NCBI GenBank assembly: GCA_964653045.1
Contig: CAZZBW010000001.1
Span: forward strand, 617 to 64,616
From: an uncultured Pseudomonadales bacterium
GTDB taxonomy: Bacteria > Patescibacteriota > Microgenomatia > UBA1400 > PJMF01
Direction: 5' to 3'
DNA length: 64,000 nt
A model generated the notes under the pieces. That model did no database searches. It saw only the letters and a program-made list of their open reading frames with translations, and was not told where the DNA came from. This document shows, piece after piece, positions 6,008 through 44,563 of this stretch. Position numbers and translations under genes: made by a program. Position 1 is the first letter of the stretch. The number at the start of each line of letters is the position of its first letter.

Positions 6008-6045
6008 TGAGAAATAACAAGTTAAAAACTATCGATAAGGAGCAT

Positions 6046-6525: not shown

Positions 6526-6990
6526 ATGTTCAAACTACCCTCCAGTAAATCAGGTTTTACCCTCATCGAGCTCTTAATCGTGATTGTGATTATTGCCTTG
6601 TTATTGGGAATTCTATTACCCAATATGCTGGGGATGAGAGAGAGGGCGAGGGATAGCGAGACAAAATCAGAGTTGAGAGAGCTCAAACTGGCGGTGGAGC
6701 TCTACGCTGACGAGTTTCAAGGGTATCCAGAAGGACATGCAAATAAAATGTATGGTTGTGGCACTACACCACCGGCGATCTGTAATGATGGTGATGTTTT
6801 CAGGCGAAATGGAATAGATTTTATGCAGGAAATGCCAGATGATTATAATTATGAGCAGCCAGACTCTACCAGTTTTTACATTTGGAAACTCTTAGAGAAT
6901 GAGTCCGATCAAGATATAGAAAGAAGTTGGGCAAAGTGTGGAATTACATCGTCGCCTGACCCGCAGGCTTATTTCGAATGCAGTTTTTAA
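6526..6990 (+). CDS. Type IV pilin-like protein
   Basis: KSG|FTLIELLIVIVIIALLLGIL prepilin motif. Conserved charged segment after the helix (RERARDSE, also present in the other two pilins). Four Cys in the C-terminal half. Confidence 0.7.
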   Translation: MFKLPSSKSGFTLIELLIVIVIIALLLGILLPNMLGMRERARDSETKSELRELKLAVELYADEFQGYPEGHANKMYGCGTTPPAICNDGDVFRRNGIDFMQEMPDDYNYEQPDSTSFYIWKLLENESDQDIERSWAKCGITSSPDPQAYFECSF

Positions 6991-30600: not shown

Positions 30601-33600
30601 TCCAAGAAGTACCATCATGGCGGAGGGTCTGACCGCTGGTACCAGTGGGGAGCAGCACACTAGATAAATTTGTCCAGACTGGGGCAGTATTCGCTCCTTG
30701 GCTCTGTAAGTAATATCCACTGGTACCAGCTAAGCCGCCTGGCATCAGGGCATTACTAAACTGGAGATTGCCAGCAATGTCTAGTTTTTGAGCTGGAGCA
30801 GTGGTGCCGATGCCGACGTTACCGGTAGTATTTATAACGAATTTTTGGTTCGCCGCATTGTAATCGGTGCCGATTCCGTAACTATATTGGGCACCGCCAT
30901 AAAATACACCAGAAAACCATGATGCGCTTGCTCCTGTGTATTGAATTCCAGCAATGCGGTCTATTGCTCCTCTGGTTAACTCTAAAATGGCTGAATTTCC
31001 TTCAAATTTAGCCATTGTTGCCAAGGATGGACCATTGGTAACATTCAAAATTACGCTTGGACTCGTCGTCCCAATTCCCACATTCCCCATGAAGTGACCA
31101 GCACCAGTGTTTGCATCTGCTCTAAACTTAGCACTGGCGGTGGAGTTTCCACCGATATATAGATTAAGAGACTGATTAGTAGGAGAGAGTCCTTGGTTGG
31201 CTAGTGTCCAGTAGTTAGTACCAACAGTAGTAGGATCTGTCCAAGTAGGAGTACCTGATCCAGCACTGGTTAACAGGTATCCGGTAGTACCAACACTACT
31301 GAAGCCATATGCAGTCCCAGTAGAGTAAGCAATCGTGCCAGCTGAACCGACTGTCGTGGCTCCCGTACCACCATATCCAACTCCCAGAGTACCAGTCACT
31401 TCAGTCGAACCCAAGTTAATCGCTTCACTGATCAGATCTTTATTAGCATTAGTTTTAACAGGTAGAGAAGCAGTTAGACCTGTGACTCGCACATCACCCG
31501 CAACTTCCAGCTTTTGAGCTGGTGCAGTGGTACCGATACCGACGTTGCCGGTAGAACTAATTGCTAACCTTGTCGTAGTTGTCTGGTTAAAATATATTGG
31601 ACCATCGCTTCTTTGATTTGCGATAATTGCAGAAAGACCACTGGCCGCTCCCGTAATTTTAACCCCATTGGATGAATCAAGTGAAGCTCTAATAAGGATA
31701 GATGGGGCACTGCCGGCAACATCTAAATTTGAACCGGCGATCGTCGTCCCAATCCCGACGTTCCCCATAAAGTGACCTGCACCAGTGTTTGCATCTGCTC
31801 TAAACTTAGCACTTGCCGTGGAGTTACCACCGATATATAGATTTAGAGACTGATTAGTAGGAGAGAGTCCTTGGTTAGCTAATGTCCAGTAGTTAGTACC
31901 CACAGTAGTAGGATCTGTCCAAGTAGGAGCTGTATTAGTCCCAGCAGAAGTCAATAGATATCCAGATGTTCCTGCTGCTGCTCCTGGCATGATTGCACCA
32001 GAGAATTGGAGGTTACCGGCTATGTCTAGTTTCTGAGCTGGTACTGTTGTCCCAATCCCTACGTTTGTCCCATCGTTATGTAGAAGTGAGTTAGCAATCC
32101 AAGATGTGCCGTCGTGTCTGAGGGTCTGGCCGCTGGTACCAGTGGGGAGTAACACACTAGACAAATTTGTCCAGACTGGGGCAACATTGGCTCCTTGGCT
32201 CTGTAAGTAATATCCACTGGTACCAGCTAAGCCGCCTGGCATCAGGGCACCACTGAACTGCAGGTTACCAGCTATATCTAGTTTCTGAGTGGGAGCAGTA
32301 CTACCAATGCCGACATTGCCAAGTGGATTAACAACAAATAATGATTGCGATGTTGAATCTTGAATCTGAAAGATATTGGCTGTCTGAGAAGCTGCTCCCT
32401 TAAGAATAAGGGCGTTATCTGTGGCGGTGTTGGACTGTAAGGTAAAATCATCGCTTGTCCAAATACCATTGAATTTTATTAAACCGTATCTTGAAGCAGA
32501 TGCTTGGGGGTATTGGTTAACGGTGCCGCTGGTAGTGTTGTTGGTCAAATACGAGTAATAGAGGTTAGCAACTCCGCCAGTACTGATGTCGTAGTCTGAA
32601 CCCCCAAAATAACTATTTTTTGCATTTACGGTATAGGCACCAGGAACATATAGTCCATACCTGGTGCCAGTAAAGTATCCAACGCTTGACACAGTAGTTC
32701 TCTCAATTGAAATTGTTTGCCAATTGTTGTATATGCCAACGGCGTCTTTATAGTCACCTCTTACCGATACGTTGCTGTCAAATATTGAAAGGGATGCGTT
32801 CGAGCTAAATATTCCATATAAGCTTCCGGAGCCAGTTGTTGATGAAACCGAAATAGACACATCACGGATAATGTTGCCGGATGTCCCTGATCCGGCGCCA
32901 ACTGTTATTGCTGCTACTGATCCGATATCTTTAATGTTTGTTGTATTACTGATTTGAATATCTTCTATCGACGATCCGCTACCAGACAAGTTCACTATAT
33001 AATTTATGCCTGTTCCTGCCGTTCCATCCCCATTTATTACAACATTTCCCGCACGTGATTTAAGTGTCGTATATGCAGGAACCAGTACGTTTTCAGTATA
33101 AGTACCAGGTAACACTTCAACTAAAAAGCGATTGTCTGGTGCTGGTGATTGTGTAGAAACATAAGTCATTGCGGCAGAAATGGTTGTGAAATCACCTTCG
33201 CCGTCAGGATCGACCACGACAGCGTGATCATAGGGACTCAGCATGCCGTCTTGAAATCTCACCTGACCTCCAGTTACGTCTAGCTTGTATTGAGGAGCAG
33301 TCGTCCCAATTCCTACATTCCCCATAAAGTGACCAGCACCAGTATTAGCATCCGCTCTGAATTTAGCTGAGGCTGTGGAGTTACCACCAACATACAGATT
33401 AAGAGATTGATTAGTAGGAGATAGTCCTTGATTAGCCAGTGTCCAGTAGTTTGTACCTACAGTAGTAGGATCTGTCCAAGTAGGAGTTCCTGTTCCAGCA
33501 CTGGTAAGTAAGTAACCTGTAGTACCAACACTACTGAATCCATATGCAGTCCCAGTAGAGTAAGCAACACTACCAGCTGAGCCTACCGTAGTAGCATTAG

Positions 33601-36256
33601 TACCACCATTACCTACACCCAGAGTACCTGTCACTTCAGCACTAGCTAGATTAATAGCTCCACTAATTAGATCTTTACTGGTATTAGTCTTAACCGGTAG
33701 AGAAGCAGTCAATCCTGTAATCCGGACATCGCCAACTACCTCTAGCTTCTGAGCTGGGGAAGCGGTACCGATACCAACATTACCCGTAGTTGGTAAGATT
33801 ACCAGATCTTCTGCAGGAGTAATGGTGATATCGCCATCATCGTTGGCAATTGTTGAGGCTGCGCCAGCGATGTGTAACCTGGCGGCAGGATTGTAAGTGC
33901 CAATACCAACATTACCCATAAAGTGACCAGTACCAGTGTCTGCGTCAGCCCGAAATTTAGCCGTAGCGGTGGAGTCGCCACCGACATAGAGGTTGAGAGT
34001 GGTATTAAGTGCGTGTAATCCCTGATTAGCCAGTGTCCAGTATGTCTCACCTGTGGCCGTCATCTCGATCCAGGTGGGATCGGCTCCAGCGCCGTTGGTA
34101 GAGAGGACATAACCAGCAGTACTTGGGGCAAGGGTGGTCATGGTGCCAGTGTTGTTAAAGAAGGGAATGCTGCCTCTGACCACACTACTCCAGTTCTGAC
34201 CAGTCCCGCCGTTACTGACACCTAGTGCGCCAGTTACTTCTGAACTGGCGAGATTAATTGCAGCACTAATGAGATCTTTATTGGCGTTAGTCTTGACTGG
34301 CAGAGATGCAGTCAGGCCTGTGATCCGGACATCTCCTACTACCTCAAGCTTCTGAGCAGGTGCGGTGGTGCCGATACCGACATTTGTCCCATCGTTAAAA
34401 AGAAGTGAGTTGGCTGTCCAAGATGTGCCGTCGTGTCTGAGAGTCTGACCGCTGATCCCAGTGGGCAGAAGAGTGCTGCTCATATCTGTCCAAACTGGCG
34501 CCGTATTAGCTCCCTGACTCTGTAAGTAATACCCACTGGTACCAGATTGGCCGCCTGGCATCAGGGCGCCGGAGAATCGGAGATTACCTGAGACGTCGAG
34601 CTTTTCTACAGGATTCGAGGTACCGATTCCCAGATTACCAGCCGAATTAATTACGCCAAGAGTAGTATCTGTACTCGTTTTCCATTGGGCAATATCGGCG
34701 GTGGCGGATGGGCCGGCTTTGAGGATGAGGGCGGTGCCACCCGCGTAGGTAGCGGAGAGGGTGGCACCGGGAGCGCTCAGATAGCCTTCCACATCTAAAT
34801 CAGAATTGATTTCAACTTTGCCAATTCCATCAGGGTCAAGGACAATGTCACCGTTCGAGCCGGCCGGAGTTTGGAGAGTCAGGGTCGCAGCTTCAATGGT
34901 GAATGATGTGCCAGTAGATTTGAGTATACTGTTGGACTCAGCAATCAGGATTTGACCGGCGTTGTCCATTACAAGAACAGTATTTTTGGTAGCACCACCA
35001 GTGGGAGCTGGAGGGTAACCTTGGAGCGTTTCGGAGTTGAGGGCATACGCCACTGATTTAATCGCTTGTCGCGGCGTCAGCACCTCTGCGTCGACCTCAA
35101 CCTCCAGCCAGACGTTGGAGTTTTCGGTAAATACTTCATTACCGATCTCGGCGCCGCACTCGTCGCCCAAGCCTATGGAAAAAATACCGTCTTGATCTGG
35201 ATCGACGCTACACGTCCCGCCTGAGTCCCAGAGCAAACTTCCGCCTGTACCTGGGCCGGTGTCGTAGAGATAGAACCGGACTGGAGTGGGGTCAATAATT
35301 GGGGTTTTGGCAATATCGGTTAATCTTCCTTGAAACGAGAGCGATCGATAAGGTCGGGTGAGCTCGGTGGGATAAGCAAGAGAAGGTGTGGCCGAGTCAA
35401 GCCACTGTTGATAGCCAAAAAGGCCTAGAGCCGAGAACAATAAAGCAACTATGGCCAATGTGGTGTAATTGAGCGAAGGTGCGCGGCTGGCGGAATGAAG
35501 TCGAGAGAGGGCGGAATTGAGTTGATACTGCCAGTCCTGATTGGAGCGAGTACTGACAGAACTGGTAAAGTTGTGATCTAAGGTGAGTAAAGGCAGCTGC
35601 CAGAGTTGTTTTTTGTTGGCAGAAGGTGTTTGTTTGGGTGTTTTGGGTAACTTTTTGGTCTTAAGTCCAGAAGCCATTCGGGTTAAGTGGGGCTCCGCCT
35701 GCGCATTAAGAGCAACAATTTCTGAGAAGCCATGTTCGACAAAACCCTCTTTTTGTAGCCATAGTGCAAATTGGGTAATACTCGATAATTTCCTTTTGAC
35801 CGTGCTGATTGATTGACCTTGGAAAAGAGAATTCTCGAGGAAGCTCAATAATTTGGGTTTTGTCAGAATTTGGGTTAGAGAAGATTGCTGGATGAATGCG
35901 ATGAATTGGCCGATATCAGAGCGATAACCCTTAATCGTTTGCGGTGAGCAGTGGGCACGATGGAGTGCTAAAAGATATGTTTGGAGCGCGACTCCAGCCT
36001 GGGAAATGAAATAGAGTCTTGCAAACTGATGGAGCAAGGGTTGGGGCTGACGTTTCGGATGAAGAAAGCGAGAAAGTAAAGCACGGGCGTGTCCAAACAG
36101 ATTTTGAGCCGCTTGGTGATGATGAAGTTCGACCAGCTCATCGATGGCAGCACGAATATCTTGCTCTTTGGCCTCAATTGAGCGACCAAAAAGACCTACA
36201 AGGTCAATGAGGGCAATGAAAGTGCGCTTTTCGGTTGGCATGAGCAGCTTTGTCAA
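18674..36256 (-). CDS. Giant (5860 aa) surface fibril protein: N-terminal integrase-type core-binding domain, one TM helix, then a long tail-fibre-like repeat array
   Basis: Continuous ORF. Residues about 90-180 match the Phage_integrase_N / XerCD core-binding fold. TM LAIVALLFSALGLFGY. At least 30 copies of the GNVGIGTT.P..KL.V.G motif. At least 9 copies of YWTLANQGL...NLY.GG.STASAKF.AD. A tail-fibre-like LDNQHGSYY module. C-terminal coiled-coil region. Confidence 0.8.
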   Translation of the reverse strand: MTKLLMPTEKRTFIALIDLVGLFGRSIEAKEQDIRAAIDELVELHHHQAAQNLFGHARALLSRFLHPKRQPQPLLHQFARLYFISQAGVALQTYLLALHRAHCSPQTIKGYRSDIGQFIAFIQQSSLTQILTKPKLLSFLENSLFQGQSISTVKRKLSSITQFALWLQKEGFVEHGFSEIVALNAQAEPHLTRMASGLKTKKLPKTPKQTPSANKKQLWQLPLLTLDHNFTSSVSTRSNQDWQYQLNSALSRLHSASRAPSLNYTTLAIVALLFSALGLFGYQQWLDSATPSLAYPTELTRPYRSLSFQGRLTDIAKTPIIDPTPVRFYLYDTGPGTGGSLLWDSGGTCSVDPDQDGIFSIGLGDECGAEIGNEVFTENSNVWLEVEVDAEVLTPRQAIKSVAYALNSETLQGYPPAPTGGATKNTVLVMDNAGQILIAESNSILKSTGTSFTIEAATLTLQTPAGSNGDIVLDPDGIGKVEINSDLDVEGYLSAPGATLSATYAGGTALILKAGPSATADIAQWKTSTDTTLGVINSAGNLGIGTSNPVEKLDVSGNLRFSGALMPGGQSGTSGYYLQSQGANTAPVWTDMSSTLLPTGISGQTLRHDGTSWTANSLLFNDGTNVGIGTTAPAQKLEVVGDVRITGLTASLPVKTNANKDLISAAINLASSEVTGALGVSNGGTGQNWSSVVRGSIPFFNNTGTMTTLAPSTAGYVLSTNGAGADPTWIEMTATGETYWTLANQGLHALNTTLNLYVGGDSTATAKFRADADTGTGHFMGNVGIGTYNPAARLHIAGAASTIANDDGDITITPAEDLVILPTTGNVGIGTASPAQKLEVVGDVRITGLTASLPVKTNTSKDLISGAINLASAEVTGTLGVGNGGTNATTVGSAGSVAYSTGTAYGFSSVGTTGYLLTSAGTGTPTWTDPTTVGTNYWTLANQGLSPTNQSLNLYVGGNSTASAKFRADANTGAGHFMGNVGIGTTAPQYKLDVTGGQVRFQDGMLSPYDHAVVVDPDGEGDFTTISAAMTYVSTQSPAPDNRFLVEVLPGTYTENVLVPAYTTLKSRAGNVVINGDGTAGTGINYIVNLSGSGSSIEDIQISNTTNIKDIGSVAAITVGAGSGTSGNIIRDVSISVSSTTGSGSLYGIFSSNASLSIFDSNVSVRGDYKDAVGIYNNWQTISIERTTVSSVGYFTGTRYGLYVPGAYTVNAKNSYFGGSDYDISTGGVANLYYSYLTNNTTSGTVNQYPQASASRYGLIKFNGIWTSDDFTLQSNTATDNALILKGAASQTANIFQIQDSTSQSLFVVNPLGNVGIGSTAPTQKLDIAGNLQFSGALMPGGLAGTSGYYLQSQGANVAPVWTNLSSVLLPTGTSGQTLRHDGTSWIANSLLHNDGTNVGIGTTVPAQKLDIAGNLQFSGAIMPGAAAGTSGYLLTSAGTNTAPTWTDPTTVGTNYWTLANQGLSPTNQSLNLYIGGNSTASAKFRADANTGAGHFMGNVGIGTTIAGSNLDVAGSAPSILIRASLDSSNGVKITGAASGLSAIIANQRSDGPIYFNQTTTTRLAISSTGNVGIGTTAPAQKLEVAGDVRVTGLTASLPVKTNANKDLISEAINLGSTEVTGTLGVGYGGTGATTVGSAGTIAYSTGTAYGFSSVGTTGYLLTSAGSGTPTWTDPTTVGTNYWTLANQGLSPTNQSLNLYIGGNSTASAKFRADANTGAGHFMGNVGIGTTSPSVILNVTNGPSLATMAKFEGNSAILELTRGAIDRIAGIQYTGASASWFSGVFYGGAQYSYGIGTDYNAANQKFVINTTGNVGIGTTAPAQKLDIAGNLQFSNALMPGGLAGTSGYYLQSQGANTAPVWTNLSSVLLPTGTSGQTLRHDGTSWIANSLLYNNGTNVGIGTTNPISFVDILAGTGGSLRIRDSANRSLLFTTYDGTNPATISTANTVSGLLLKSQDGGNQIFLANSGNVGIGTITPAQKLEVAGDVRVTGLTASLPVKTNANKDLISAAINLASAEVTGTLGVGNGGTNATTVGSAGTIAYSTGTAYGFSSVGTTGYLLTSAGSGTPTWTDPSTITGTNYWTLANQGLSATNQSLNLYVGGDATATAKFMADGATGQGYFAGNVGIGTTTPSQKLDVSGAIRLGAAGANNVLNTSAAAGAASSSLYWGDKMVCDASGNCGPSSNWTVNAGTISPNNTSLDMLIGGTASSSAKFAFLNVNSGTPTASISGNLALAVPTGANPATKLNILNGGTFGIRTSTGGDAGLTERFTILNNGNVGIGSTSPLSFFDVNSLFNVTSAGNVGIGSTAPNAKLNIVSTNTTSLLNLTGDSITSGNGINVSLDGLTTGNGLYFESTSTALTTGNLAYLNWNPSGSTEVYATGDLFKLNVGQYGNIGKILGIYNNDSEVFSVAQNQITSAVPHQFTAAGDVSMAYDLIFTNQTSSNIQTYGPFSITVGEAWESNNLTLKTYGAGDIIANLSGTGNFLVPTGNVGVGSTAPAQKLDVVGNVQFSGAIMPGSSAGTSGYLLTSAGAGATPTWTDPSTITGTSYWTLANQGLHATNTTLNLYVGGNSTASAKFMADGATGAGYFAGNLGIGTTAPGAMLQLGTAGTSRGTLRLTGNTSGYTQIQPAEAAGDWTLTLPANDGDLNQMLTTDGSGNTSWTTISTGSTTWDAIQSPVGAQSLTMGANTSTWTWNSLTTGTGLTSSSTSLTSGTMFSLSTSSTALSSGGLLNLSATGAPASTWTGDLAKFEYNNADADVDGSALKVGLLGTDALGSGTALNITTSQTGTGALALRVNDDGTYADTTPFVVDMGGNVGVGTTSPGAYLDIYADTMVSGGKAVSVSQIGSIDSQTRYGIYSTATGGGINTSTNVAGYFSATGAVKNYGLIVDSGNVGIGSTAPAQKLDIVGNLQFSGAIMPGAAAGTSGYLLTSAGANTAPTWTDPTTVGTNYWTLANQGLHPTNTTLNLYVGGNSTASAKFRADANTGAGHFMGNVGIGTTVPTQKLEVVGNALVNNTLYMLDINHSIRAVSGQGVYIDTYGVIDPFFVQQVSGNVGIGTTAPAFKLNLAAATTAVGGIGFGSDTNLYRSAADTLKTDDNLVVGTLGAGSTDTVVTHSSGTLQTRSIDTRVWGTSLVDGSGTNGYNAYWSPDSNTLAAEQYVNVTRGGLGANMTAGGAGEIIYSTGTAAYGHLTAGTSGMALISGGAAAPTWGTLSTTYGGTGQNWSAVARGSVPFFNNTGAMSTLAPSTAGYVLSTNGAGADPTWIEMTATGGGSYWSLANQGLYPTNTTLNLYIGGNSTASAKFRADADTGTGHFTGNLGIGTTNPTARLHIAGAASTIANSTGNITITPAANLIMAPTAGNVGIGSTNPTQKLDIAGNLQFSGAIMPGAAAGTSGYLLTSAGANTAPTWTDPTTVGTNYWTLANQGLSPTNQSLNLYIGGNSTASAKFRADANTGTGHFMGNVGIGTTSPTYKLTVDSGYIGLSDGYGVSWGTSTIYGYQNSLIGFQTAGSEKMRLSATGGLSLGNGYIVTDPGAGSMIVSGNVGIGTTAPSAMLQLGTAGTSRGTLRLTGNTSGYTQIQPAEAAGDWTLTLPANDGDLNQMLTTDGSGNTSWTTISTGSTTWDAIQSPVGAQSLTMGANTSTWTWNSLTTGTGLTSSSTSLTSGTMFSLARSGAGLTTGGKLLNIDMGAATAGNGATIATTGIYTGTGLLTLTANSATTGTLSSISGTALTSGTALSITAGGTGLTGNALYVTSPSTSAFSNGGVRFNFTGAHTGNGFQLDDATATGNAMAINVNSLTTGKGLAISSSTLSSGSLLDLVTTSTAATGSTQKGLNISLSGTNVTSAQTTYGAYITNTHAGTTSTNVGLYASATGGTTANYAAIFANGNVGIGTTSPSAKLRVVGGYSDISDSGTPPSSGAFGTAMGHLSGSYGWIQTYGSTPLILNPLASNVGIGTTAPSYKLDVVGNGQFIYGSNGNALRLGGVSSGLDFNVYNSYAILTTEASNQALALQTNGGNVGIGTTSPGNKLAISGSSTGSIGAFIDNTNTAGYGVLRINSGNADAAVGAALHSIGSTYSGSGAYAPLTTALVGYDSGGLSLTANNAAGVISMFTAGSAAGNERLRISANGNVGIGTTTPSAKLHINGDLKLATGANVNYIATTVGATGDDTTLVTEQGIREAINAGGPIGGGWTDDGSVVRLTTVGDLVGIGTTSPGGKLDIADGQLALILGADSGASTRTNATQKWGRFGGYHYTNAEEPVAIATTQSENGYNILHFGGGTPAMNATTYMLFYTAANGTTTTGTERMRIDSAGNVGIGTTNPLQKLDVDGNIQIASANESTDPVLFLSDRDSLTTEGLKFTYDNSTGASYIDNLYNNDNGDIFIRTKTAVAPINALTIKGNGNVGIGTTNPNAKLRVQDALASGAYGFGAIFQTRLTGTATAGVGLISDYQTTSTTASTTTAGALQASQMSAITTGTQYTIGGQFSGWSSGVNGATTHSIGGRFQAGGNVTSGTINAYGVYIQNALSMNLTGTSTNYGLYVETPTGADTNVAAYFGGNVGIETTNPNNFKLQVSGDIGGQTNNTSKLGSSAIRFANIYSVLGNYSGQITSSLAVGTSPFAVTSTTLNTNLNADLLDNQHGSYYMPASTDNWVNITGDTMTGTLNFSGVASDITTATNEHLSLMPAGTGNVGIGITNPLGKLQITGDEVRIGSGGTINSATGDGDLYVQDALEVDGDTALRNTIVIGNVGIKTSSVLSGVNLQLGGNSPAGVFYLKTTSNSNGANLGEIAFGGLDSGFAEQEYASMNANIVSSTAGSEIGRLDFNTFAGGSDATRLSISGDNVGIGTTAPASKLNIVTSLDGSSYTANLTNTSTGTSASNFLQFGNNASSDLFLVGLRGSAYTGEGNDALIWNRAGSNIRFGTNNSLKMILTASGNLGIGTTTGAGQKLEIYGGNLKINANNAGILGGATNTSTAGFIYMAALDDDKMFRFWTDSATAQYNTAEGGGWSSASFDYAEKFPYVNETSVSKGDLVSVVANDGVIETLDRASRQYDENLVGIVSTQPGFIGGIPWDDSEGENKKSPNLEKAVALAGRVPVKVSTINGPLKTGDRVTSSNLPGIGMRSSQAGFSAGYVLQNFNPDPASCQYVASAEGILWPDFPKGGSPLEYTKDCYRLPDGTLIGKVIAFVNPGWFDPDTSLTSVSQLSLSHTADSSYDVYDPSGQKINRVSAFSQSMIGELTAGLVLSKEIFVEDKLVSPIVESNQIITDQLASRNITTNSLEFKGDTGKILASVDATGKASFTEAVINRVSIPTQALISNLVANSISATNVAADALSVGGKSLSIYVREIVDEALANTSGLIASIPEILQLSDLVVNRRAEINELEVNTLAINQIPIDQYLDERIAQRLSAVSPTPTPSVTDPVSFDPTQPTLLGELNAQEVTVSGGLSASSVTTTTVDTQNLVADSGSFELELKATDLEATAARFDVIESNLAKIDEVTALTASLANATVSGTLYVENIADLDQHIAEAFTQPSLSELFFNEKSEITQELDQINQLIASLDSTVQELSSFDKSLEELSLTEEEVVLNGSALFIEEYFRVNGTGYIAESLGIGQQLNIGNKVQLTENYLAFTANPEAEGELAIFQIQPSGKGVLSIMAGLMTLDETGLVNITGNLHVAGDITTEGSLLSNLLQPVDFGNPFQVQVAGASSESGELKNSRFEIVDATGAPVATISAQGRAEFAGGIGIGSEDLSDQSASASADTVINTDKTSGKAVLPAGQSLLVIETSAITDKSLVYITPLGSTQNQVLYVASQQPDQEIITEATEEKPEETVIIPGHFSVAVDQALDTDLQFNWWIVN
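25241..25590. repeat. About 350-bp intragenic repeat, copy A (near-identical to 28114-28463)
   Basis: Direct comparison of the two stretches shows 1 mismatch over about 350 bp. Both lie inside the 5860-aa ORF and encode the same about 116-aa segment (...GAMLQLGTAGTSRGTLRLTGNTSGYTQIQPAEAAGDWTLTLPANDGDLNQML...). Confidence 0.85.
28114..28463. repeat. About 350-bp intragenic repeat, copy B
   Basis: See copy A. The copies lie about 2.9 kb apart, in direct orientation and in frame. Confidence 0.85.
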
Positions 36257-36739: not shown

Positions 36740-37486
36740 ATGAAAAAGTCATCACTCAAGGTTCTTATTAGTCTGGGGGCGTTAGGTTTACATTCTGCCC
36801 ATCTCGACGAGAATTACTTATCAGTAATAGTGCCCGAGCTGAGCATTAATGGGCAAAGATCGTTGATTTATCATCTAAAGCGATCTTTCTTGGTTGAACA
36901 GTTCCGACCTGCCAAAGGAATAAAGAGCTTGCGAATTACAACTGGGGGGATGAGAGTGTTGAAGGCTGAATTTCCGGCTCTCTTTCCTGAAAATGGAAAG
37001 AGAGCCGGATGGCACTGTATGGTGTTCGTTAAGCCGCCAAAGAATGACCCGGCTTTTCGATATCTGCGTTCCCAGGTGATAGCAGATGGAGGTATCAATC
37101 TAACTAGAGGGGTATATCTCAAGCAGTCGCCTTATTCGACCAAGCTGATGATGATGTGTGACAAGCTGTACGCCCAAGCAATCAGTATATTTTTGATAGA
37201 TTCTTGGATATTTGGGTTTGATTCGCTATATTTGGAGAAAATGCAGGGAGCAGATACCCATTTTTCACTACTGTCTGGTGTTAGCAGTGAAATAACTCAA
37301 TTGCTAAGTAAAATTAGCAAAGATAATATTGCGCAATATCAGCGAAAAAAGTTAATTGAGGGTCTGTTAGAAAGATACTATGCAATTACTCTCAATTATC
37401 CATACTTTACCAATAACGAATTCTCTCAATATATCTCGACATCGAACGTATATTTACAGGTGGGAGAGCTCTTAAAATTATTGTGA
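36740..37486 (+). CDS. Hypothetical protein, possibly a winged-helix (PaaX-like) regulator, divergent from the giant gene
   Basis: 248-aa ORF after a 480-bp AT-rich intergenic region. Weak resemblance to the PaaX N-terminal wHTH (SLIYHLKRSFLVE...LRITTGG). No strong motif recognised. Confidence 0.4.
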   Translation: MKKSSLKVLISLGALGLHSAHLDENYLSVIVPELSINGQRSLIYHLKRSFLVEQFRPAKGIKSLRITTGGMRVLKAEFPALFPENGKRAGWHCMVFVKPPKNDPAFRYLRSQVIADGGINLTRGVYLKQSPYSTKLMMMCDKLYAQAISIFLIDSWIFGFDSLYLEKMQGADTHFSLLSGVSSEITQLLSKISKDNIAQYQRKKLIEGLLERYYAITLNYPYFTNNEFSQYISTSNVYLQVGELLKLL

Positions 37487-37790: not shown

Positions 37791-39413
37791 TTAGTTTATT
37801 TTATGAATATTCTTCCATGCGGCTATGCTGATTAGAATCAGCAGTAATAGTACATTCGTCCAGTGCGGCCATAATAGGGTGATTAGCGCACTGATGGGTA
37901 GATTAAGCATCCAAACTAACGGTCCGGTCCAACTGCCGCACTCTACTGATTTAGCTGCTTTGGTAGTTAGTCTTTTCCCGTTTTTTTCTATTAATGTGAG
38001 GGGAATGCCTACGACTGGTATAGTTTCTTTTTCTTTAATCTCAAACTTTTCACTTTGGTAAAAGTTTTGCCAGTGTCCATGTTTCGGTTTCTTTTCCAAG
38101 CATGGAAACAGCCCTGCTGGATGTTGGACTGATATCTGATATTTTCCTGGTTCTAGTTCAGTTAGCTGGTATCTTCCGTGTTGGTTGCTGAGCTTTCGAT
38201 CAACTTCTTGAGCAATCTCTTCATTATTAATTAGATATATGCTAATCCTGGCGGAGGCAAATCTGTGTCGCTCTGGTAACTCATACACCAGACCGAACCA
38301 CCGCGCGTGAATTGGCCACCAGCGCAGTATCCACAAGAACTCTTTCATCTGCCCAAAATTAGGCTTTCTGCCCAAGCGGCTGGTTAGATAAGCCAGTCCG
38401 ATCATAAGGGTGATAATTAACCAAATTAGTAGCATCAAGTACTCAGAGTAGCCCAGGTTGGGCAGGCGGCTTTTGGCATATGACCGCAGCGATGTTACAA
38501 CTGAAGCCATCTTGGTGGTTTGATCGGCAATTGTTTGAAATATAAGGGGAGGTGGTGAGCCGACAGTCTTGGGAGAGGCAATGATCATAAACTGCAGGTT
38601 CTGAATCATGCTGATATTGCCAGCTGCATCTTGGATGATGAAGCTGAGACTAATGGTAGCGTTTTCTGGAAGTTGAGGAAGCTGGGTTGTCCAGACTCCG
38701 TCAGGTCCAATCACGAAATCAATCACAATGGTCTGGCCATCAGGTAAGACGATGATCAGCTTCACTTGAGCGCCCGGTTCTCCAGTACCGTGGAGAACCG
38801 GGCTATTGGTATGAACGATCAATAACCCAGATTCGGTCAGATCTGACGGAGCAGTGAAATCAACTGGTAGCTGACCAATTTGATCAATACTGAATGCTGG
38901 GGCTAGGGTATCAATAATGAAGTACCAGATGGCCGAAAAACTGGAGTTACCACTGGTATCAACGGCTTCAACTTGCCAGAAGTGTTGTCCGTCTGCCAAG
39001 GGATGAAGGGAATTGAGAGTGAATACCCCGTTGACGATGCTGGACGGATCGATCAAGTCATACATGATCGATCCGTCCACCCACAACCGGTAATACGCCA
39101 CCTCGACGTTGTCAGTGCTGCCAATCCAGATAAAATCTGGAATGGCAATATTAATTTGGCTGTTATTATCTGGAGAGATGAGAATAGGAGCAGAAGGTTT
39201 GATAATATCTGGGACGCCGGCAGTCACTTGGGTGCCACGACTTATTTTAACTGTTTGGGCCAAACTAAGCTTGGGATTGATTACTGCCCAACTCAGTGAA
39301 ACCACCATCAAGCAGATGAGAACTTTGCTCGGGAGATTGAGTTTGAAACTACGCCTTTTTTTCAAGGTCTTGCAGCTTATTTTCCAACTCTTTGATGCGG
39401 GCAGATTGATCAT
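37791..39413 (-). CDS. Membrane protein with Ig/FN3-like ectodomains and a CarboxypepD_reg-like domain
   Basis: N-terminal signal/TM, central TM (LMLLIWLIITLMIGLAYL) and C-terminal TM. ARISIYLINNEE...HGRYQLTELEPGKYQISV matches the carboxypeptidase-regulatory / Cna-B-like beta-sandwich signature. True start is probably ATG at about 39308, since the long ORF overlaps the upstream gene by 64 nt. Confidence 0.5.
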   Translation of the reverse strand: MINLPASKSWKISCKTLKKRRSFKLNLPSKVLICLMVVSLSWAVINPKLSLAQTVKISRGTQVTAGVPDIIKPSAPILISPDNNSQINIAIPDFIWIGSTDNVEVAYYRLWVDGSIMYDLIDPSSIVNGVFTLNSLHPLADGQHFWQVEAVDTSGNSSFSAIWYFIIDTLAPAFSIDQIGQLPVDFTAPSDLTESGLLIVHTNSPVLHGTGEPGAQVKLIIVLPDGQTIVIDFVIGPDGVWTTQLPQLPENATISLSFIIQDAAGNISMIQNLQFMIIASPKTVGSPPPLIFQTIADQTTKMASVVTSLRSYAKSRLPNLGYSEYLMLLIWLIITLMIGLAYLTSRLGRKPNFGQMKEFLWILRWWPIHARWFGLVYELPERHRFASARISIYLINNEEIAQEVDRKLSNQHGRYQLTELEPGKYQISVQHPAGLFPCLEKKPKHGHWQNFYQSEKFEIKEKETIPVVGIPLTLIEKNGKRLTTKAAKSVECGSWTGPLVWMLNLPISALITLLWPHWTNVLLLLILISIAAWKNIHKIN

Positions 39414-40401
39414 TTTTCTTGCTGATAAGGTGTCTGCGAATAATAATTATCATAGCGACAACTACCAGCAGTGCAATGATCACGGCGAGTACTAAAGTAA
39501 TTGGGAAGAGCCAAAAGCTGAGTTTAGCAATCACGACTTTCCCTGATTGACCGTAATTCATGGTCAAAGTGGCAAAATACTTTCCCGTTCCCCAGATTTG
39601 TTCAAACTTACCATCAAATGGCCGCTCAGCCAGAGGAAAGACATTTTTTGACTCAATATTAATGCTGGCTACCTGCCGACCAAACATATTGGTAATTTCC
39701 AAGTTGATGTTGGGTTGAATATGAATGTCTGAGAGGTTCTCAACACTGAAAGAGAAAGGCACGGGACCGTACTCAGAAAAGGCTGGCATCTTAAAGTTGC
39801 GGATATATGCCTCTTCATTAATCGGTCCGTTGACGAAAACATAGAGTAGAGTGCCGACTTTTTGACTTATGCCAGACTGAGACTCGGTGAGTTGATCTAC
39901 TTCAGCACTGTCAAGCTTTTCCGGAGTGGGTTGGTGAGTGATCATGGCATAGTGACCACCTGGCAGAGCATCTGCGGGGATCTCGATCACCACTGATAAA
40001 GCCTTGACTTCATTAGCCTGAATTGTTTGTGAGTTGGGGGCGATGGTGATCCAATCAGCCAGGCTCCAGCGTGTGGAGGTTGATTCGGTAATGGGCATGG
40101 GGGTGGAACCATCGGCGCCGATCACAAAATCTTGAGCTTGAGACACAACATTTATCTGAGTGGTCGAAGAGTTTTTCACTCTAATGCTAGTTTGCAATGT
40201 TTCTCCTGGGTTACCCTTAAGAGTTCCGTCGTCACCGAGGCGAGGAGGGATAGCAGTTAGAGTCACCTGATTTTCGTCAGTAACTTGGGCGAAAACAGAA
40301 GCTAGAAAATGAGTTTTTCCCAAAAATACCAAGCCGGCAATAAACAAGGATAAGGCAAGTATTCTGGAGAGCTGGGATTTGGTTTTGTCTGGGCAGGACA
40401 T
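39349..40401 (-). CDS. Cell-surface protein with DUF916/DUF3324-like architecture (signal peptide, beta-rich ectodomains, C-terminal TM anchor plus basic tail)
   Basis: Signal peptide (LALSLFIAGLVFLG). C-terminal TM LFPITLVLAVIIALLVVVAMIIIIRRHLISKK. Internal ...IPADALPGGHYAMIT motif paralogous to the 41974-42966 product. Confidence 0.55.
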   Translation of the reverse strand: MSCPDKTKSQLSRILALSLFIAGLVFLGKTHFLASVFAQVTDENQVTLTAIPPRLGDDGTLKGNPGETLQTSIRVKNSSTTQINVVSQAQDFVIGADGSTPMPITESTSTRWSLADWITIAPNSQTIQANEVKALSVVIEIPADALPGGHYAMITHQPTPEKLDSAEVDQLTESQSGISQKVGTLLYVFVNGPINEEAYIRNFKMPAFSEYGPVPFSFSVENLSDIHIQPNINLEITNMFGRQVASINIESKNVFPLAERPFDGKFEQIWGTGKYFATLTMNYGQSGKVVIAKLSFWLFPITLVLAVIIALLVVVAMIIIIRRHLISKKNDQSARIKELENKLQDLEKKA

Positions 40402-40424
40402 ATTTGGCTTAAAGTTAATATTTA

Positions 40425-41903
40425 CTAAAATGTCGCAGTCGCGGTGTAGGTCACATAGTTAGAGTAAGTGCCGGCTGCTTGGAGAGGGGAAATTATGGCT
40501 TTGTAGCAGACATAAAGATTATGATTGTCGGCTACGGAGGTGTGAGTCATGATTGTCTGGGGTGGTTCAGTGATGGCATTTTCATCATCGGCAAACTGGC
40601 GGAAACAAGTGCCGGCGCCGGTACAGGCGCCAACAGCATTACTGGTGTATTGAAACGCAGGAGTAGTGCCACTGGTGTTGACATCGTGAAGAGAGAAAGC
40701 AAATCCCTTGACGGCAGTTTGGCTCCACTCGGCTGGATTGGTGTGTGACATATTGCTGGTGTTACCTACGGAATCGGGGATACACTCAGTACCAGTGTTG
40801 TCGCCCAGACATAAGTTGGCATTTCTTCCTAACTGATCATTTGCGATTGCAGTTACTGCGTAGCCATTACTGGCATTGGTGGAGACAGCCAAGCCTTGGG
40901 CAGCATAGGTAAAGCCGTCGATTGCGAGATAGCCGAAGGGTACGGAAGAAGGGGTGGTGGTGACAGACGTGTTAAAGCCACAGGCAGAAGTTCCAGAGTT
41001 CAAACCAAGGATTCGGAAAGTAATCTGAGGAGCCACTTCAGCTGTGATGCGGACTGCCTCGACCACTCCGATTGCCACCGTGCTGAAATCAGCTACAGCA
41101 TCCGAACTATCTAAATGTTGAATGATTGGTCTGTAGGTATCGGCGTAACCGAGTGAGTGAGTATCTTTTTTGGGAGCTGGATTGATAACTGAGCTAATAA
41201 TAATTGCGTCATTGGTGACACCGTCGAAGTCGGTGCCGATCGCGCCATTGCCAGTATAACTACACTCGTAGGCATGATAATCGACTCCGGCAATGGTGAC
41301 ATTGGAGGCGGTAGCGGTCCCGGCGGCAAAATCATAGCCAGTCAAGTCAGCTGGGCAAGTGACAGTAGGAGCCACGGTGCCGAAGTCAAACGCCCCGCCA
41401 TCGGGAATACCGTTAGCCGCTTCAGTGTCATCGGTGACTGCAGGCAGGAGAATTCTAAACGAACCGTTGGCAATAGCGTTGGTAGTTGAAAATCTGACAG
41501 TTAATGACGCAGAGCTGGTGGCGACCAGATCATCTCCTGCGTCGGCATCACCAGTGGCGAGAACAGGATCGATATTGACGGTTGAGTCACTGACTACATC
41601 TGTAACTGAGTACAGTGTAGCGGTATTACCAGTTCCAACAGTAAGGAGCTGGTCGCCGATGACTAATTGAGCTGAAGAGGTCGATGGCCAGGAGGCAGCG
41701 GTGGTAGTGAGAATTAGTTGTGAGGTGCCGACGGTATTGCCCGCAGCCAGGGAGCCGCGGAACGAAGGCCGAGAATTAGAGAGAGTAATCGAGACATCAC
41801 CAAGATTGGCAGAGCGAGTATCGTCGAGATATCCAGCGATGATAACCCCAGAAAGACCGATTGTTGCCAAGATACCTAATCTAAGGATAAAAGCTTTGGG
41901 CAT
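40425..41903 (-). CDS. Secreted beta-rich surface protein with a C-terminal WxL-like / spore-coat-U-like domain
   Basis: Signal peptide (ILRLGILATIGLSGVIIAG). C-terminal block ...FRQFADDENAITEPPQTIMTHTS...YKAIISPLQAAGTYSNYVTYTATATF is paralogous to the C-terminus of the 42970-43746 product. It ends with an AG.Y...V.Y.A motif reminiscent of SCPU and WxL C-termini. Confidence 0.55.
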   Translation of the reverse strand: MPKAFILRLGILATIGLSGVIIAGYLDDTRSANLGDVSITLSNSRPSFRGSLAAGNTVGTSQLILTTTAASWPSTSSAQLVIGDQLLTVGTGNTATLYSVTDVVSDSTVNIDPVLATGDADAGDDLVATSSASLTVRFSTTNAIANGSFRILLPAVTDDTEAANGIPDGGAFDFGTVAPTVTCPADLTGYDFAAGTATASNVTIAGVDYHAYECSYTGNGAIGTDFDGVTNDAIIISSVINPAPKKDTHSLGYADTYRPIIQHLDSSDAVADFSTVAIGVVEAVRITAEVAPQITFRILGLNSGTSACGFNTSVTTTPSSVPFGYLAIDGFTYAAQGLAVSTNASNGYAVTAIANDQLGRNANLCLGDNTGTECIPDSVGNTSNMSHTNPAEWSQTAVKGFAFSLHDVNTSGTTPAFQYTSNAVGACTGAGTCFRQFADDENAITEPPQTIMTHTSVADNHNLYVCYKAIISPLQAAGTYSNYVTYTATATF

Positions 41904-41973
41904 ATTTTGACAACAAAAAATCTGCTAATTCGTCCATTGTAGTCAGGTCAATGGATACTTTGCAATAGGCAAT

Positions 41974-42966
41974 TTACGATTTCCTCTTCAAGAAGTACCA
42001 AACTAATTGGGTAAAACCAAAAATGAAACCAATGAAAAACACTGAGAGTGGTAGAGCAAAGAATGCCCGTTGAAATTTTTGTGTAGAAAGATCGGCGTTG
42101 ATCAATTCAATCTCGAGTTGGTATGGTCCGAGGAGAAATTTTGGGGTAAAAACAAACTCAATGGGCGTCAACCCTTCACTTGGGTTGACAGTCGATTCAT
42201 CCAAGCTTGCGCCATATAACTTCCTTGTTTCTTTACCCAAGACGACCATAGGCATCAGCTTTTGTTCATAAATGCTTTCACCCCGCCAATTAATGAGTTT
42301 AGCACTGCCAGAGGCAATCGAAGCCTGAATGCTTTGATTGGTAATTGACGGGGAAAAATTAATTGGGCGAAAACTATCAACGATTGGGCCAATACCAAAA
42401 TCAGTGATACTTAAGTTGGTGTCTTGGTCCGTCTGCGAGACCAAGACAATCAGGTTGCTGCCAATTGAGGGCAGGACAGTAGTACTATTATTAAAGTTTG
42501 GAGCGCTGGCTTTATCGGTCTGTGGTAAGACTGATTCAAAGAGAATAGTGAGGTAGTACTCTTTTTCGAGCGCGTCGCGTGGTGGGGTAATTTTGATACT
42601 CAGCTGGCTTTTCCGCCCAGGTGGGAGAGTTACGGCGGCAAAGCCCTGATCGGGCAGATCTAAATGGGGAAAGGTCAGCTCTGCTTGGGGAATAGCTTTT
42701 CCCTGATTTGGGATAAAATCTACAAATTTTGGTTTGAGTGTCAATGCAGTTTGACCGGTGTTTTCCAAAGTAACGATATGGGTGGCCGAAGTACCTGGTC
42801 TGACTCTGAGGAAGGCGACGGGTGGAGTAATGGAAAGATCGAACACGGATTGGGCGCTGCTGGGGCTGGGATGAGCCACCAGCAGCGCCAACAGTATAAG
42901 TAGTAGTAATTTCACTCGAATCACCGGTTTATTTGCCAAAATTTGGTTAAAATTGGTTTTTGTCAT
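41974..42966 (-). CDS. Cell-surface protein with DUF916/DUF3324-like architecture (paralog of 39349-40401)
   Basis: Signal peptide (LLLLILLALLVAHPSPSSA). N-terminal SVFDLSITPP...TLENTGQTALTL. ...PPRDALEKEYYLTILFE motif. C-terminal TM FALPLSVFFIGFIFGF plus KRKS. Confidence 0.55.
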   Translation of the reverse strand: MTKTNFNQILANKPVIRVKLLLLILLALLVAHPSPSSAQSVFDLSITPPVAFLRVRPGTSATHIVTLENTGQTALTLKPKFVDFIPNQGKAIPQAELTFPHLDLPDQGFAAVTLPPGRKSQLSIKITPPRDALEKEYYLTILFESVLPQTDKASAPNFNNSTTVLPSIGSNLIVLVSQTDQDTNLSITDFGIGPIVDSFRPINFSPSITNQSIQASIASGSAKLINWRGESIYEQKLMPMVVLGKETRKLYGASLDESTVNPSEGLTPIEFVFTPKFLLGPYQLEIELINADLSTQKFQRAFFALPLSVFFIGFIFGFTQLVWYFLKRKS

Positions 42967-42969
42967 TTA

Positions 42970-43746
42970 TTAATACCCTGGCACAGCCACGTACACCACA
43001 CTAGTTTGATAGCGGCCGGCCGCTTCCGATCCGGATAGGCCTGCCTTGTAAGTAACAGTACTTAGCCTGTCGAATGCGGCACTGGTAGTGCTCATGATCG
43101 CCTCCATTGGCTCGACTGGAGAAGTGGCGGCTTTGTTGGCAAACTGGCGGAAATGATTACTAGAGGTGAAGTCAGGAGCAACGTCCACTCCTTGGATATT
43201 GAAGCCAAAGCCGCCCACACCTGTGTCTTGCCAGATTGTAGCCACTGTCTCATCACAATCATTATTATCACAAGTGGTATCGGGAATAGCATAACTACCG
43301 TCGACAGTTTGGAGTGGATGAGCTTCATAAGCGTAAATAGTGTAGCCACCGGCATTGGGGGCATTGATCAACAGGGTATGAGCGGCGGTGTTATGCGCTT
43401 GGGCAGTGAGCAGTCCCAGATTAATGTTGGTATTGCTGATCACAAACTGGAACGGTTTGATTTGGTAAATATACTGGAACCCACTGCCTAGGAAATAATT
43501 GGATACTCCATACTCACCGTATGGTCCCGCAAAGCTTTGCCCCACCGTGTCAGTGACGGTATAAGTATCACCAGATTTTTCTCCCGATGTAATATTAAAA
43601 TTGCCAAACTGAATGATATAGGAATCTGACTCGAGGTTTTCAGCTAAAACTGGGGCAACTAAAAAAGAGGTTGAAATGATGAATTGCGTTAACGCCAAAA
43701 CAAAAATCCAGTGCCAATGAGCGACTTTTCTTTGATTAAACCTCAT
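42970..43746 (-). CDS. Secreted surface protein with a C-terminal WxL-like / spore-coat-U-like domain (paralog of 40425-41903)
   Basis: Signal peptide. C-terminal ...HFRQFANKAATSPVEPMEAIMSTTSA...TYKAGLSGSEAAGRYQTSVVYVAVPGY. Stop is 4 nt before the start of the downstream gene. Confidence 0.55.
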   Translation of the reverse strand: MRFNQRKVAHWHWIFVLALTQFIISTSFLVAPVLAENLESDSYIIQFGNFNITSGEKSGDTYTVTDTVGQSFAGPYGEYGVSNYFLGSGFQYIYQIKPFQFVISNTNINLGLLTAQAHNTAAHTLLINAPNAGGYTIYAYEAHPLQTVDGSYAIPDTTCDNNDCDETVATIWQDTGVGGFGFNIQGVDVAPDFTSSNHFRQFANKAATSPVEPMEAIMSTTSAAFDRLSTVTYKAGLSGSEAAGRYQTSVVYVAVPGY

Positions 43747-43769
43747 ACAATTTACCCAATTTGCTTGTG

Positions 43770-44471
43770 TCAGCTATCTTGCTCAATCTGCTGATTCAAC
43801 TGCTCGATTTCGTCATGAATTTTTGGTTCACAACGGAAGTAAGTCGTTTGCCAAGACTGAAGTTGTTGCTTGAGATTAGATTGAAAAGTTTGAAAGGCTG
43901 CCAGTTGATCTGTGGCAACTTGTAGCTGTGATTTGTACTTTTCTAACTCGGTGTGCAGCGACTCGATTTCGTTTTCTTGGGTTTTCAAAGCTTGAGTGTC
44001 TTCCCGCAGTGTTTGTTTTTTGGTGATAACCTCCTCGTGTTGCAACTTGGCAAACATAAAAAAAACCATGACGATGGGCAGAGTTGCCAGATGGACAAAT
44101 ACACCCAGGTCCAGAACGGGTGACAAACTCAAGTGAAACAGGGCGGCTCCAGCCATCACTGCTGTCGCCACTGATGGTCTGGTGCTCATTACCAAAAAGA
44201 ACAGATGAATATAAGTCAGCGGATAAAGCGGAGAGTTAAGGTTACCGGTTCTACCAATAACCAAGAGCAAGCTGAAAGTGACAAAAGCTAGTTCAAACGA
44301 GGTTTGCCCTGGCAAAAGATGCCAGGGCTTGGTTTTTTTGAGGGCAAAATAACAGATAGCAGAGAGCGCGACTGCCTGAATCGAATAGGGTACAAGGAGG
44401 GGAGTGCGCAACCACAAATAAGCTAGGGTAACTGCGGCAAGAAGTACCAGGGCGTGAAGGGTTGGGCGCAT
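43770..44471 (-). CDS. Integral membrane protein with a C-terminal coiled-coil; first gene of the surface-complex operon
   Basis: At least 5 TM helices, then a heptad-rich tail (KKQTLREDTQALKTQENEIESLHTELEKYKSQLQ...). No recognisable catalytic motif. Confidence 0.5.
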   Translation of the reverse strand: MRPTLHALVLLAAVTLAYLWLRTPLLVPYSIQAVALSAICYFALKKTKPWHLLPGQTSFELAFVTFSLLLVIGRTGNLNSPLYPLTYIHLFFLVMSTRPSVATAVMAGAALFHLSLSPVLDLGVFVHLATLPIVMVFFMFAKLQHEEVITKKQTLREDTQALKTQENEIESLHTELEKYKSQLQVATDQLAAFQTFQSNLKQQLQSWQTTYFRCEPKIHDEIEQLNQQIEQDS

Positions 44472-44563
44472 GTGATCATCATACCAGCCCGAGATATTTT
44501 TTCCAAAACGATTTTGCCATGTTATACTTACTTACTCTGGTATGAGGATATTCATGGATAAAA

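Follow-up and report, generated by a model that had tools for sequence, protein, structure and literature searches.

A candidate Pam-like pilus operon with DUF916-related putative chaperones in Microgenomatia

The 64,000-nucleotide (nt) stretch analyzed here (hereinafter, the window; contig CAZZBW010000001.1, positions 617 to 64,616 of the forward strand, assembly GCA_964653045.1) contains a six-gene locus, g1 to g6, that is probably (about three chances in four) a divergent, Woesebacteria-type version from Microgenomatia of the 'Pam' pilus of the Candidate Phyla Radiation (CPR), an usher-less system of monoderm cells that operates by donor-strand exchange. The observations on this locus comprise its gene content, the paralogy between its genes, the homology of two secreted proteins to models of Pam pilins, a chaperone fold combined with a transmembrane (TM) anchor, homology to DUF916, and synteny. 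The pam operon was defined, and its filaments were solved, in the CPR bacterium Candidatus Mycosynbacter amalyticus (Saccharimonadia), where cryo-electron microscopy revealed that Pam pilins form filaments (bioRxiv 10.64898/2026.03.03.709456). According to the same preprint, the pilins PamA, PamB and PamE are built alike, with a beta-sandwich at the N-terminus, a single linker strand and, at the C-terminus, a truncated Ig-like domain into which a neighbouring subunit inserts its linker; cysteines occur in pairs in PamA and PamB. The tip is formed by PamT and the anchor by the RbmA-like PamR, whereas the chaperones PamC and PamD, which resemble PapD and FimC, keep a TM helix at the C-terminus. 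In Microgenomatia, remote Pam homologs were found solely by a language-model search (10.64898/2026.03.03.709456). The original prediction for this locus, which was made from the sequence alone and favored a cell-surface-complex (Csc/WxL-type) system, considered such a system in a CPR-like lineage to be undescribed, a claim that is outdated given the 2026 preprint and the NCBIfam models for Pam components. The alternative offered there, a novel pilus or fibre assembly module, turns out to be the better one.

All six predicted open reading frames (ORFs) were confirmed on the minus strand, with the same lengths (233, 258, 330, 492, 350 and 540 amino acids for g1 to g6) and coordinates, and their order is kept in relatives. 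The gaps between consecutive genes from g1 to g5 are 23, 3, 70 and 23 nt, in agreement with the predicted range of 3-70 nt; this range does not extend to g5 and g6, which overlap by 65 nt when the longest g6 ORF is taken, whereas in the public gene call for the identical contig, g6 starts 41 nt past g5. Hydrophobicity profiles include signal-like N-terminal segments in g2, g3, g4, g5 and g6, and the hydrophobic segments fit the membrane and signal-peptide topologies that had been described for these proteins. The genes, and the segments within them that are discussed below, are the following:

43770..44471, minus strand: g1, polytopic membrane protein of 233 amino acids with a C-terminal coiled-coil tail (ORF)
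42970..43746, minus strand: g2, secreted PamT-like small pilin of 258 amino acids, putative tip subunit (NCBIfam matches)
42973..43437, minus strand: C-terminal Pam-pilin domain of g2, residues 104-258 (range of NF058581, hhalign to the C-terminal domain of g4)
41974..42966, minus strand: g3, chaperone-like protein of 330 amino acids with a signal peptide, two beta domains, a C-terminal TM segment and a KRKS tail (paralogy with g5, hhalign)
42436..42465, minus strand: residues 168-177 of g3, IGSNLIVLVS, where conservation in the g3 family is highest; putative G1-type donor strand (conservation scan)
40425..41903, minus strand: g4, secreted two-domain pilin of 492 amino acids, PamA-like, putative major (shaft) subunit (NF058581 family matches)
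41004..41042, minus strand: residues 288-300 of g4, AEVAPQITFRILG, a near-invariant inter-domain strand and putative donor (linker) strand (conservation, predicted strand 294-300)
40428..40952, minus strand: C-terminal Pam-pilin domain of g4, residues 318-492, ending in the invariant ...YTATATF-COOH (hhalign, NF058581, conservation)
39349..40401, minus strand: g5, PapD-like and WxLIP-like protein of 350 amino acids with a signal peptide, a DUF916 domain, a second beta-sandwich, a TM segment and a cytoplasmic helix
39949..40221, minus strand: core of the DUF916 (WxLIP_PGBD)-like domain of g5, residues 61-151 (Pfam E 2.6e-4; score of 21.4 bits, below the 27.3-bit cutoff)
39832..39867, minus strand: residues 179-190 of g5, SQKVGTLLYVFV, conserved, following a low-confidence hairpin, putative G1-type donor strand (structural model, conservation)
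37791..39413, minus strand: g6, membrane protein of 540 amino acids, putative pilus base or anchor (Pfam, topology, synteny of orthologs)

The matches to the Pam models are those of the two secreted proteins. Neither g2 nor g4 has a match in Pfam. Among the NCBIfam models, g2 matches both NF058579 ('CPR-type pilus protein PamT'; E 1.2e-6, 28.1 bits) and NF058581 ('Pam pilus system pilin subunit', Pam_pilin_C; E 1.8e-6, 28.1 bits), the latter at model positions 2-148 of 148, and g4 matches NF058581 with E 1.2e-3 (18.9 bits). These matches recur among the relatives, with NF058581 detected in 60 of the 61 g2 relatives (best E 2.1e-11) and 69 of the 79 g4 relatives (best E 4.4e-11), and PamT in 40 of the 61 g2 relatives (best E 3.3e-14). 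The C-terminal domain of about 150 residues that was predicted to be common to g2 and g4 is borne out by BLASTP (E 2e-10) and by hhalign (Prob 99.5, E 6.1e-23, 149 columns). As in the Pam system, a common C-terminal domain joins a small, PamT-like pilin and a large pilin with two predicted domains. The AlphaFold2 (AF2) model of g4, with a mean predicted local distance difference test score (pLDDT) of 91.7, is all-beta, with two strand-rich halves and an isolated strand, 294-300, between them. Conservation in the g4 family is highest in the window of residues 279-288, which adjoins AEVAPQITFRILG, and peaks again at the extreme C-terminus (YVTYTATATF-COOH, 483-492). By analogy with PamA and PamB, we infer that the conserved inter-domain strand AEVAPQITFRILG would act as the donor. 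Conserved cysteines, another feature in common with the Pam pilins, number eight in g4 and two in g2 (C159 and C164, both invariant); g2 ends in ...VAVPGY. A fold search of the Protein Data Bank (PDB) with g4 retrieved generic Ig-like matches only, including weak ones to chaperone-usher tip adhesins and pilins, and no Pam or WxL entry was among the matches listed; PDB sequence searches with the g2, g4, g5, P0214 and A1/A2 profiles returned nothing meaningful and no Pam entry.

The proteins g3 and g5 are the candidate chaperones. The predicted paralogy of these 330- and 350-residue proteins spans the entire sequences (BLASTP E 2e-4; hhalign Prob 99.5, E 2.9e-23, 272 columns), and the P.DAL...Y...I motif on which it had been based is visible in the BLASTP alignment. 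The C-terminal TM segments span residues 298-316 in g3, followed by the KRKS tail, and 303-321 in g5. The AF2 model of g5 (pLDDT 88) begins with a signal helix, continues with a pair of beta-sandwich domains and ends in a long (TM) helix, and its best two-domain bacterial structural matches are the Enterococcus faecium WxLIP and the chaperones of chaperone-usher systems. The DUF916 (WxLIP_PGBD, PF06030) domain was matched in 58 of the 75 g5 relatives (best E 2.7e-7), and some g5 homologs carry the NCBI label 'DUF916 domain-containing protein'. In addition, the family profiles of g5 and g3 align with a Firmicutes WxLIP profile, itself validated by its match to 9i1y (E 1.6e-60), through the signal peptide and DUF916 (Prob 95.6 and 95.8, respectively; E about 1e-8). 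Judged by these profile comparisons, g3 and g5 are genuine relatives of DUF916/WxLIP. The other half of the predicted DUF916/DUF3324 architecture did not materialize: DUF3324 (WxLIP_HBD, PF11797) was detected by sequence in none of the 75 g5 relatives and in no g3 relatives, and the hhalign match stops with DUF916. No NCBIfam model of Pam-chaperone type was matched by g3 or g5. A pair of Sec-exported, PapD-like proteins with C-terminal TM segments in a CPR host, with no usher, corresponds to PamC and PamD.

The most conserved segments of the two candidate chaperones fall in equivalent places. In g5, these are the A1-like LTAIPPRLGD, the F1-like DALPGGHYAM and the G1-like SQKVGTLLYV; in g3, the A1-like LSITPPVAFL, the F1-like EKEYYLTILF and the G1-like IGSNLIVLVS, and hhalign aligns the latter with VGTLLYVFV of g5. 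In the AF2 model of g5, F1 and G1 are separated by a hairpin of low confidence, with strands 148-159 and 182-190 flanking the low-pLDDT loop. The conservation of A1, F1 and G1 parallels that in PapD-type chaperones, and the pattern also recalls the hairpin of WxLIP described below. The conservation maps of g4, g3 and g5 agree with donor-strand chemistry because the peaks coincide with the linker and the C-terminus in g4 and with the A1/F1/G1-like strands in g3 and g5. The segments IGSNLIVLVS of g3 and SQKVGTLLYVFV of g5 are accordingly marked as the presumed donor strands of the chaperones.

The same proteins can be read differently, as a Csc/WxL-type complex in which anchored WxLIP-like proteins hold the secreted proteins at the cell surface in non-filamentous, 1:1 complexes for adhesion or polysaccharide binding. 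WxLIPs consist of DUF916, DUF3324 and a TM helix, and their clusters encode small and large WxL proteins (PMC10599100, PMC1534035; PDB 9i1y, 9i25); the WxLIP hairpin is predicted to become ordered on binding and to contribute one strand that completes the WxL sandwich (PMC10599100). In the Microgenomatia locus, too, the anchored proteins contain DUF916 by both Pfam and hhalign, their overall architecture runs from a signal peptide through two Ig-like domains to a TM segment at the C-terminus, and their best two-domain bacterial match by structure is a solved WxLIP. The predicted arrangement, an anchor plus a secreted partner, twice, is real as well, with a small protein that amounts to the shared domain and a large one that bears it at the C-terminus, and in both systems, the beta-sandwich of the partner would be completed by a strand from the anchored protein. 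However, the secreted proteins are not WxL or SCPU proteins as had been proposed: neither domain was found by Pfam in any of the 79 g4 relatives or the 61 g2 relatives, the g2 and g4 family profiles show no similarity to a WxL profile built from 19 sequences of annotated Firmicutes plasmid clusters (hhalign Prob 0.1-0.3), and there is no W-x-L motif in g2 or g4. Without the WxL proteins that define these clusters, the locus does not qualify as one. Other differences are that DUF3324 is not detectable by sequence, that the six ORFs include no LPXTG protein and give no sortase signal, that two proteins are anchored in place of the usual one, and that the host belongs to the CPR and not to the Firmicutes. 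Furthermore, the secreted proteins match the models of Pam pilins, which form filaments, and the near-invariant inter-domain strand of g4 is hard to explain without an exchange between subunits. Altogether, a WxL-type complex appears unlikely.

Canonical WxL clusters on plasmids of Enterococcus, Lactococcus and Bacillus (loci L087-L094) follow the order LPXTG protein (optional), small WxL genes, WxLIP, with a gene for a large WxL or another large surface protein on either side; in two of these loci, a class A sortase follows, and in several, a helix-turn-helix gene is located nearby.

A sortase-dependent pilus of the Gram-positive type or a classical chaperone-usher pilus would be suggested by the resemblance of g5 to chaperone-usher chaperones and by the weak fold matches of g4 to BcpA, Spa2 and LrpA, on the one hand, and to CfaE, CupB6, Saf and CsuA/B, on the other hand. 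Such an assignment is highly improbable. Neither g2 nor g4 contains an LPXTG-type motif with a TM segment, and both end in a free beta-strand sequence; in the six ORFs, there is no LPXTG motif or sortase match and, by Pfam, no match to the usher family or, at the sequence level, to PapD. The single weak PapC_N match in one of the 64 g3 relatives (E 0.002) was read as noise. Unlike the Pap, Fim, CFA/I, Saf and Csu systems, with their periplasmic PapD-like chaperones, this locus encodes membrane-tethered chaperones and no usher, and there is no outer membrane (CPR cells are monoderm; 10.64898/2026.03.03.709456). Also, the presumed donor strand here is the internal inter-domain linker and not an N-terminal extension.

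Under the preferred reading, a Pam pilus, we infer the steps of strand exchange, the assignment of tip and shaft, the pairing of chaperones with pilins and the role of g6 as follows. All subunits would be exported by the Sec pathway. The chaperones g3 and g5 would then bind a pilin at its C-terminal domain, an incomplete Ig-like fold, by inserting a G1-type strand (IGSNLIVLVS in g3, VGTLLYVFV in g5), and each chaperone probably serves the pilin encoded directly upstream. The PamT-like g2 would start the fibre at the tip, after which copies of the PamA-like g4 would be added, with the inter-domain strand of the incoming g4 (APQITFRILG) displacing the chaperone strand in the preceding subunit. 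The base or anchor of the pilus is likely to be g6, a membrane protein whose Ig-like domains are extracellular; this is the weakest step of the proposal. The proposed assembly includes no part for g1.

The architecture of g6 includes a signal peptide, a conserved post-signal segment (VTAxVPDIIxPSxPILISP), Big_13 Ig-like domains, a TM segment, a prealbumin-like domain and, at the C-terminus, a hydrophobic hairpin; TM segments were placed at residues 326-344 and about 505-528. The CarboxypepD_reg-like domain that had been predicted for this protein is only weakly matched (E 1.5e-3), as is SdrD_B, whereas the clear match is to Big_13 (E 7e-16). An ortholog of g6 follows g5 in at least 55 loci, and g6 could be an analogue of PamR with a different architecture. 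The first gene of the cluster, g1, contains hydrophobic segments at residues 3-21, 25-43 and 122-140, shows only weak family matches of the coiled-coil type (Pfam, NCBIfam), and has an ortholog at the same position in 64 loci.

The gene order is conserved far beyond the window. The nearest genome record is a Candidatus Woesebacteria metagenome-assembled genome (MAG), with 91% identity of g4, and all 80 of the related loci from species-representative genomes belong to MAGs of the Patescibacteria/Microgenomatia type, several of which are mislabelled 'Pseudomonadales'. When the window proteins were mapped by script onto the related loci, the order ComEA and LeuRS, g1 to g6, an opposite-strand gene (x248) and a giant ORF was found in essentially all sufficiently long loci, and this order is kept down to about 36-39% identity of g4. 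The same gene order is present in about 60 related Microgenomatia MAGs, and g2, g3, g4 and g5 occur at 1:1:1:1 in 64 of the 86 fetched loci, the remainder being mostly truncated contigs. The adjacency of these genes is not fortuitous because the order is kept across related loci. The conserved block includes housekeeping genes, so vertical inheritance contributes to the conservation of the order. A rival reading is that the locus is a conserved but functionally loose collection of genes for the cell surface or envelope (Ig-like adhesins or proteins of the S-layer type, for instance), which descent has kept in order in a region that rearranges slowly, and that their products do not form one machine. 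Such a set would be compatible with the extension of synteny to ComEA and LeuRS on one side, with the generic Ig-like adhesin domains among the fold matches of g4 and with the orphan g4 paralogs that are located away from any chaperone gene. It is, nevertheless, very unlikely considering the gaps of 3-70 nt on a single strand, the strict 1:1:1:1 composition in 64 loci, the two pilin-chaperone pairs that are pairwise paralogous, and the significant matches to models of a demonstrated pilus system.

Several points weigh against assigning the locus to the Pam system. All scores against the Pam models are below the curated NCBIfam cutoffs (55 bits for NF058581; 240 bits for NF058579, the PamT equivalog), so that the NCBI rules would not name these proteins; the scores therefore indicate a divergent subfamily rather than an equivalog. 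The homology to Pam pilins was assessed against these models and not against the sequences or structures of M. amalyticus. PapD-like folds are found in many proteins that are not chaperones, and MSP, ASH and HYDIN domains score as high against g5. There is one large pilin gene here as opposed to PamA, PamB and PamE, with orphan extra copies in some relatives; there is no RbmA-like PamR, which comprises an N-terminal strand, a pair of FnIII domains and a TM segment at the C-terminus, in contrast to the Big_13 domains, several TM segments and prealbumin-like domain of g6; and the polytopic coiled-coil membrane protein g1 is an additional conserved gene without a Pam counterpart. With LeuRS and ComEA in the syntenic block, the order of the genes may in part reflect vertical inheritance rather than functional coupling. 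Finally, no filament has been observed in this lineage.

The chaperones of the Microgenomatia locus demonstrably belong to the DUF916 family; WxL, DUF916 and Csc all go unmentioned in the Pam preprint. This membership hints that the Pam and WxL systems are related, and the Pam chaperones and the Firmicutes WxLIPs may be one family. A bolder scenario, which we consider possible although the odds are somewhat against it, is that Pam pili and Csc/WxL clusters are diverged forms of one ancient, usher-less chaperone/donor-strand system of monoderm bacteria. If so, WxLIP would be a membrane-tethered, PapD-like chaperone homologous to those of the PamC/PamD type, the WxL proteins would be strand-complemented subunits that could even polymerize, as opposed to simple adhesins bound to peptidoglycan, and the Microgenomatia operon, with chaperones of the DUF916 family and pilins of the Pam type, would be a bridging form. 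This scenario is put forward tentatively because the evidence for it is confined to the first domain of the chaperones and the common logic of the clusters. No literature linking WxL clusters to donor-strand assembly was found; a WxL-WxLIP complex is available in the PDB (9i25), and no associated paper was found for it. Should the common ancestry of the whole machines hold, the WxL clusters of Enterococcus, Listeria and Lactobacillus would be recast as chaperone-assisted strand-complementation systems, connecting the surface biology of CPR and Firmicutes. The possible one-family link between Pam chaperones and WxLIPs is the new element and is absent from the preprint, whereas the existence of the Pam system in CPR was already known.

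With the Pam assignment, six 'hypothetical' genes acquire a plausible function, and four of their families are shown to be large: the database searches returned 423 matches for g4, all named hypothetical, 851 for g5 and 608 for g2, and the PamT-like/pilin-C profile retrieves 1,393 clusters at 50% identity (E<=1e-3). The curated models miss this subfamily, and annotation could be improved. Encoded next to giant adhesin-like proteins, these families probably build fibres with which episymbiont-like cells reach their hosts.

Extra copies of the g4-type pilin are located away from the operon in some MAGs (positions 10007-11542 of L035, and also L039, L042 and L061). The copy in L035 shares 67% identity with the one in the operon of the same MAG (L038). 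The ORFs beside one such orphan bear no relation to chaperones or pilins, even divergent ones, and one of them is GAPDH-like, as judged by eye from its sequence. Such an orphan might provide a second shaft pilin that would depend on the chaperones of the operon. The PamT-like domain also occurs in much larger proteins. One of 2559 amino acids (P0473) ends in a complete PamT-like domain (residues 2345-2555), a layout that recalls the 'large WxL' proteins, with host-binding domains ahead of the common C-terminal domain; in another, of 1821 amino acids (P0472), a 30-residue N-terminal segment of the PamT-like profile is repeated 24 times.

No further Pam-domain or chaperone-like ORFs were found in the window beyond the operon. 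Other features in and next to it are the following:

44478..44506, minus strand: promoter-like site TTGGAA-17-TATGAT with TG (consensus match only)
41936..41965, minus strand: promoter-like site TTGCAA-18-TACAAT (consensus scan, weak match)
36740..37486, plus strand: x248, opposite-strand gene of 248 amino acids between the operon and the giant ORF (ortholog in 48 loci)
18674..36256, minus strand: giant surface-fibre-like ORF of 5860 amino acids, downstream neighbour (follows x248 in most loci)

The first putative promoter is located directly upstream of g1, inside the 92-nt divergent gap to LeuRS. The second lies in the 70-nt gap between g3 and g4 and, by its match to the consensus, is a possible candidate for an additional promoter of the major pilin. 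For x248, a weak PaaX_M match was obtained in relatives and no Pfam match for the copy in the window; this gene may encode a local regulator.

The conserved Pam neighbourhood includes a gene for a tail-fibre-like protein and ATP synthase genes (10.64898/2026.03.03.709456), and the window similarly contains a giant tail-fibre-like neighbour and an ORF of the ATP synthase family. The 5860-residue ORF is probably the 'tail fibre-like protein' of this neighbourhood. It contains a Phage_int_SAM_1-like domain near the N-terminus (residues 93-171, E 6.6e-8) and long repeats rich in Gly, Thr and Ser, with no Pfam match in the middle and at the C-terminus; the ortholog in the locus L003 bears a Peptidase_S74 domain, and a giant ORF matching its N-terminus follows the operon in most related loci. 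It is odd that a giant surface fibre should contain a cytoplasmic, integrase-SAM-like domain. The ATP synthase alpha/beta family nucleotide-binding domain (ATP-synt_ab, E 1.4e-27) is encoded in an ORF at positions 11-949 of the plus strand that is cut by the edge of the window; it is a single ORF at about 37 kb from the operon.

The remainder of the window is rich in genes for surface proteins. Directly downstream of the 5860-residue ORF is a second giant ORF (7060-18672, minus strand; 3870 amino acids) with nine Laminin_G_3 (ConA-like lectin) domains as well as sialidase-N and toxin-receptor-binding-like domains, which resembles a large lectin-type adhesin. Two small plus-strand ORFs (6007-6513 and 6526-6990) contain the N-terminal methylation motif of type IV pilins (N_methyl, E 4e-7 and 2e-8, respectively); the region therefore encodes parts of a second, unrelated type of pilus near the operon. 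The third very large surface-type protein in these 64 kb, of 2249 amino acids, is encoded at 55530-62279 on the plus strand and contains seven Ig_Rha78A_N repeats.

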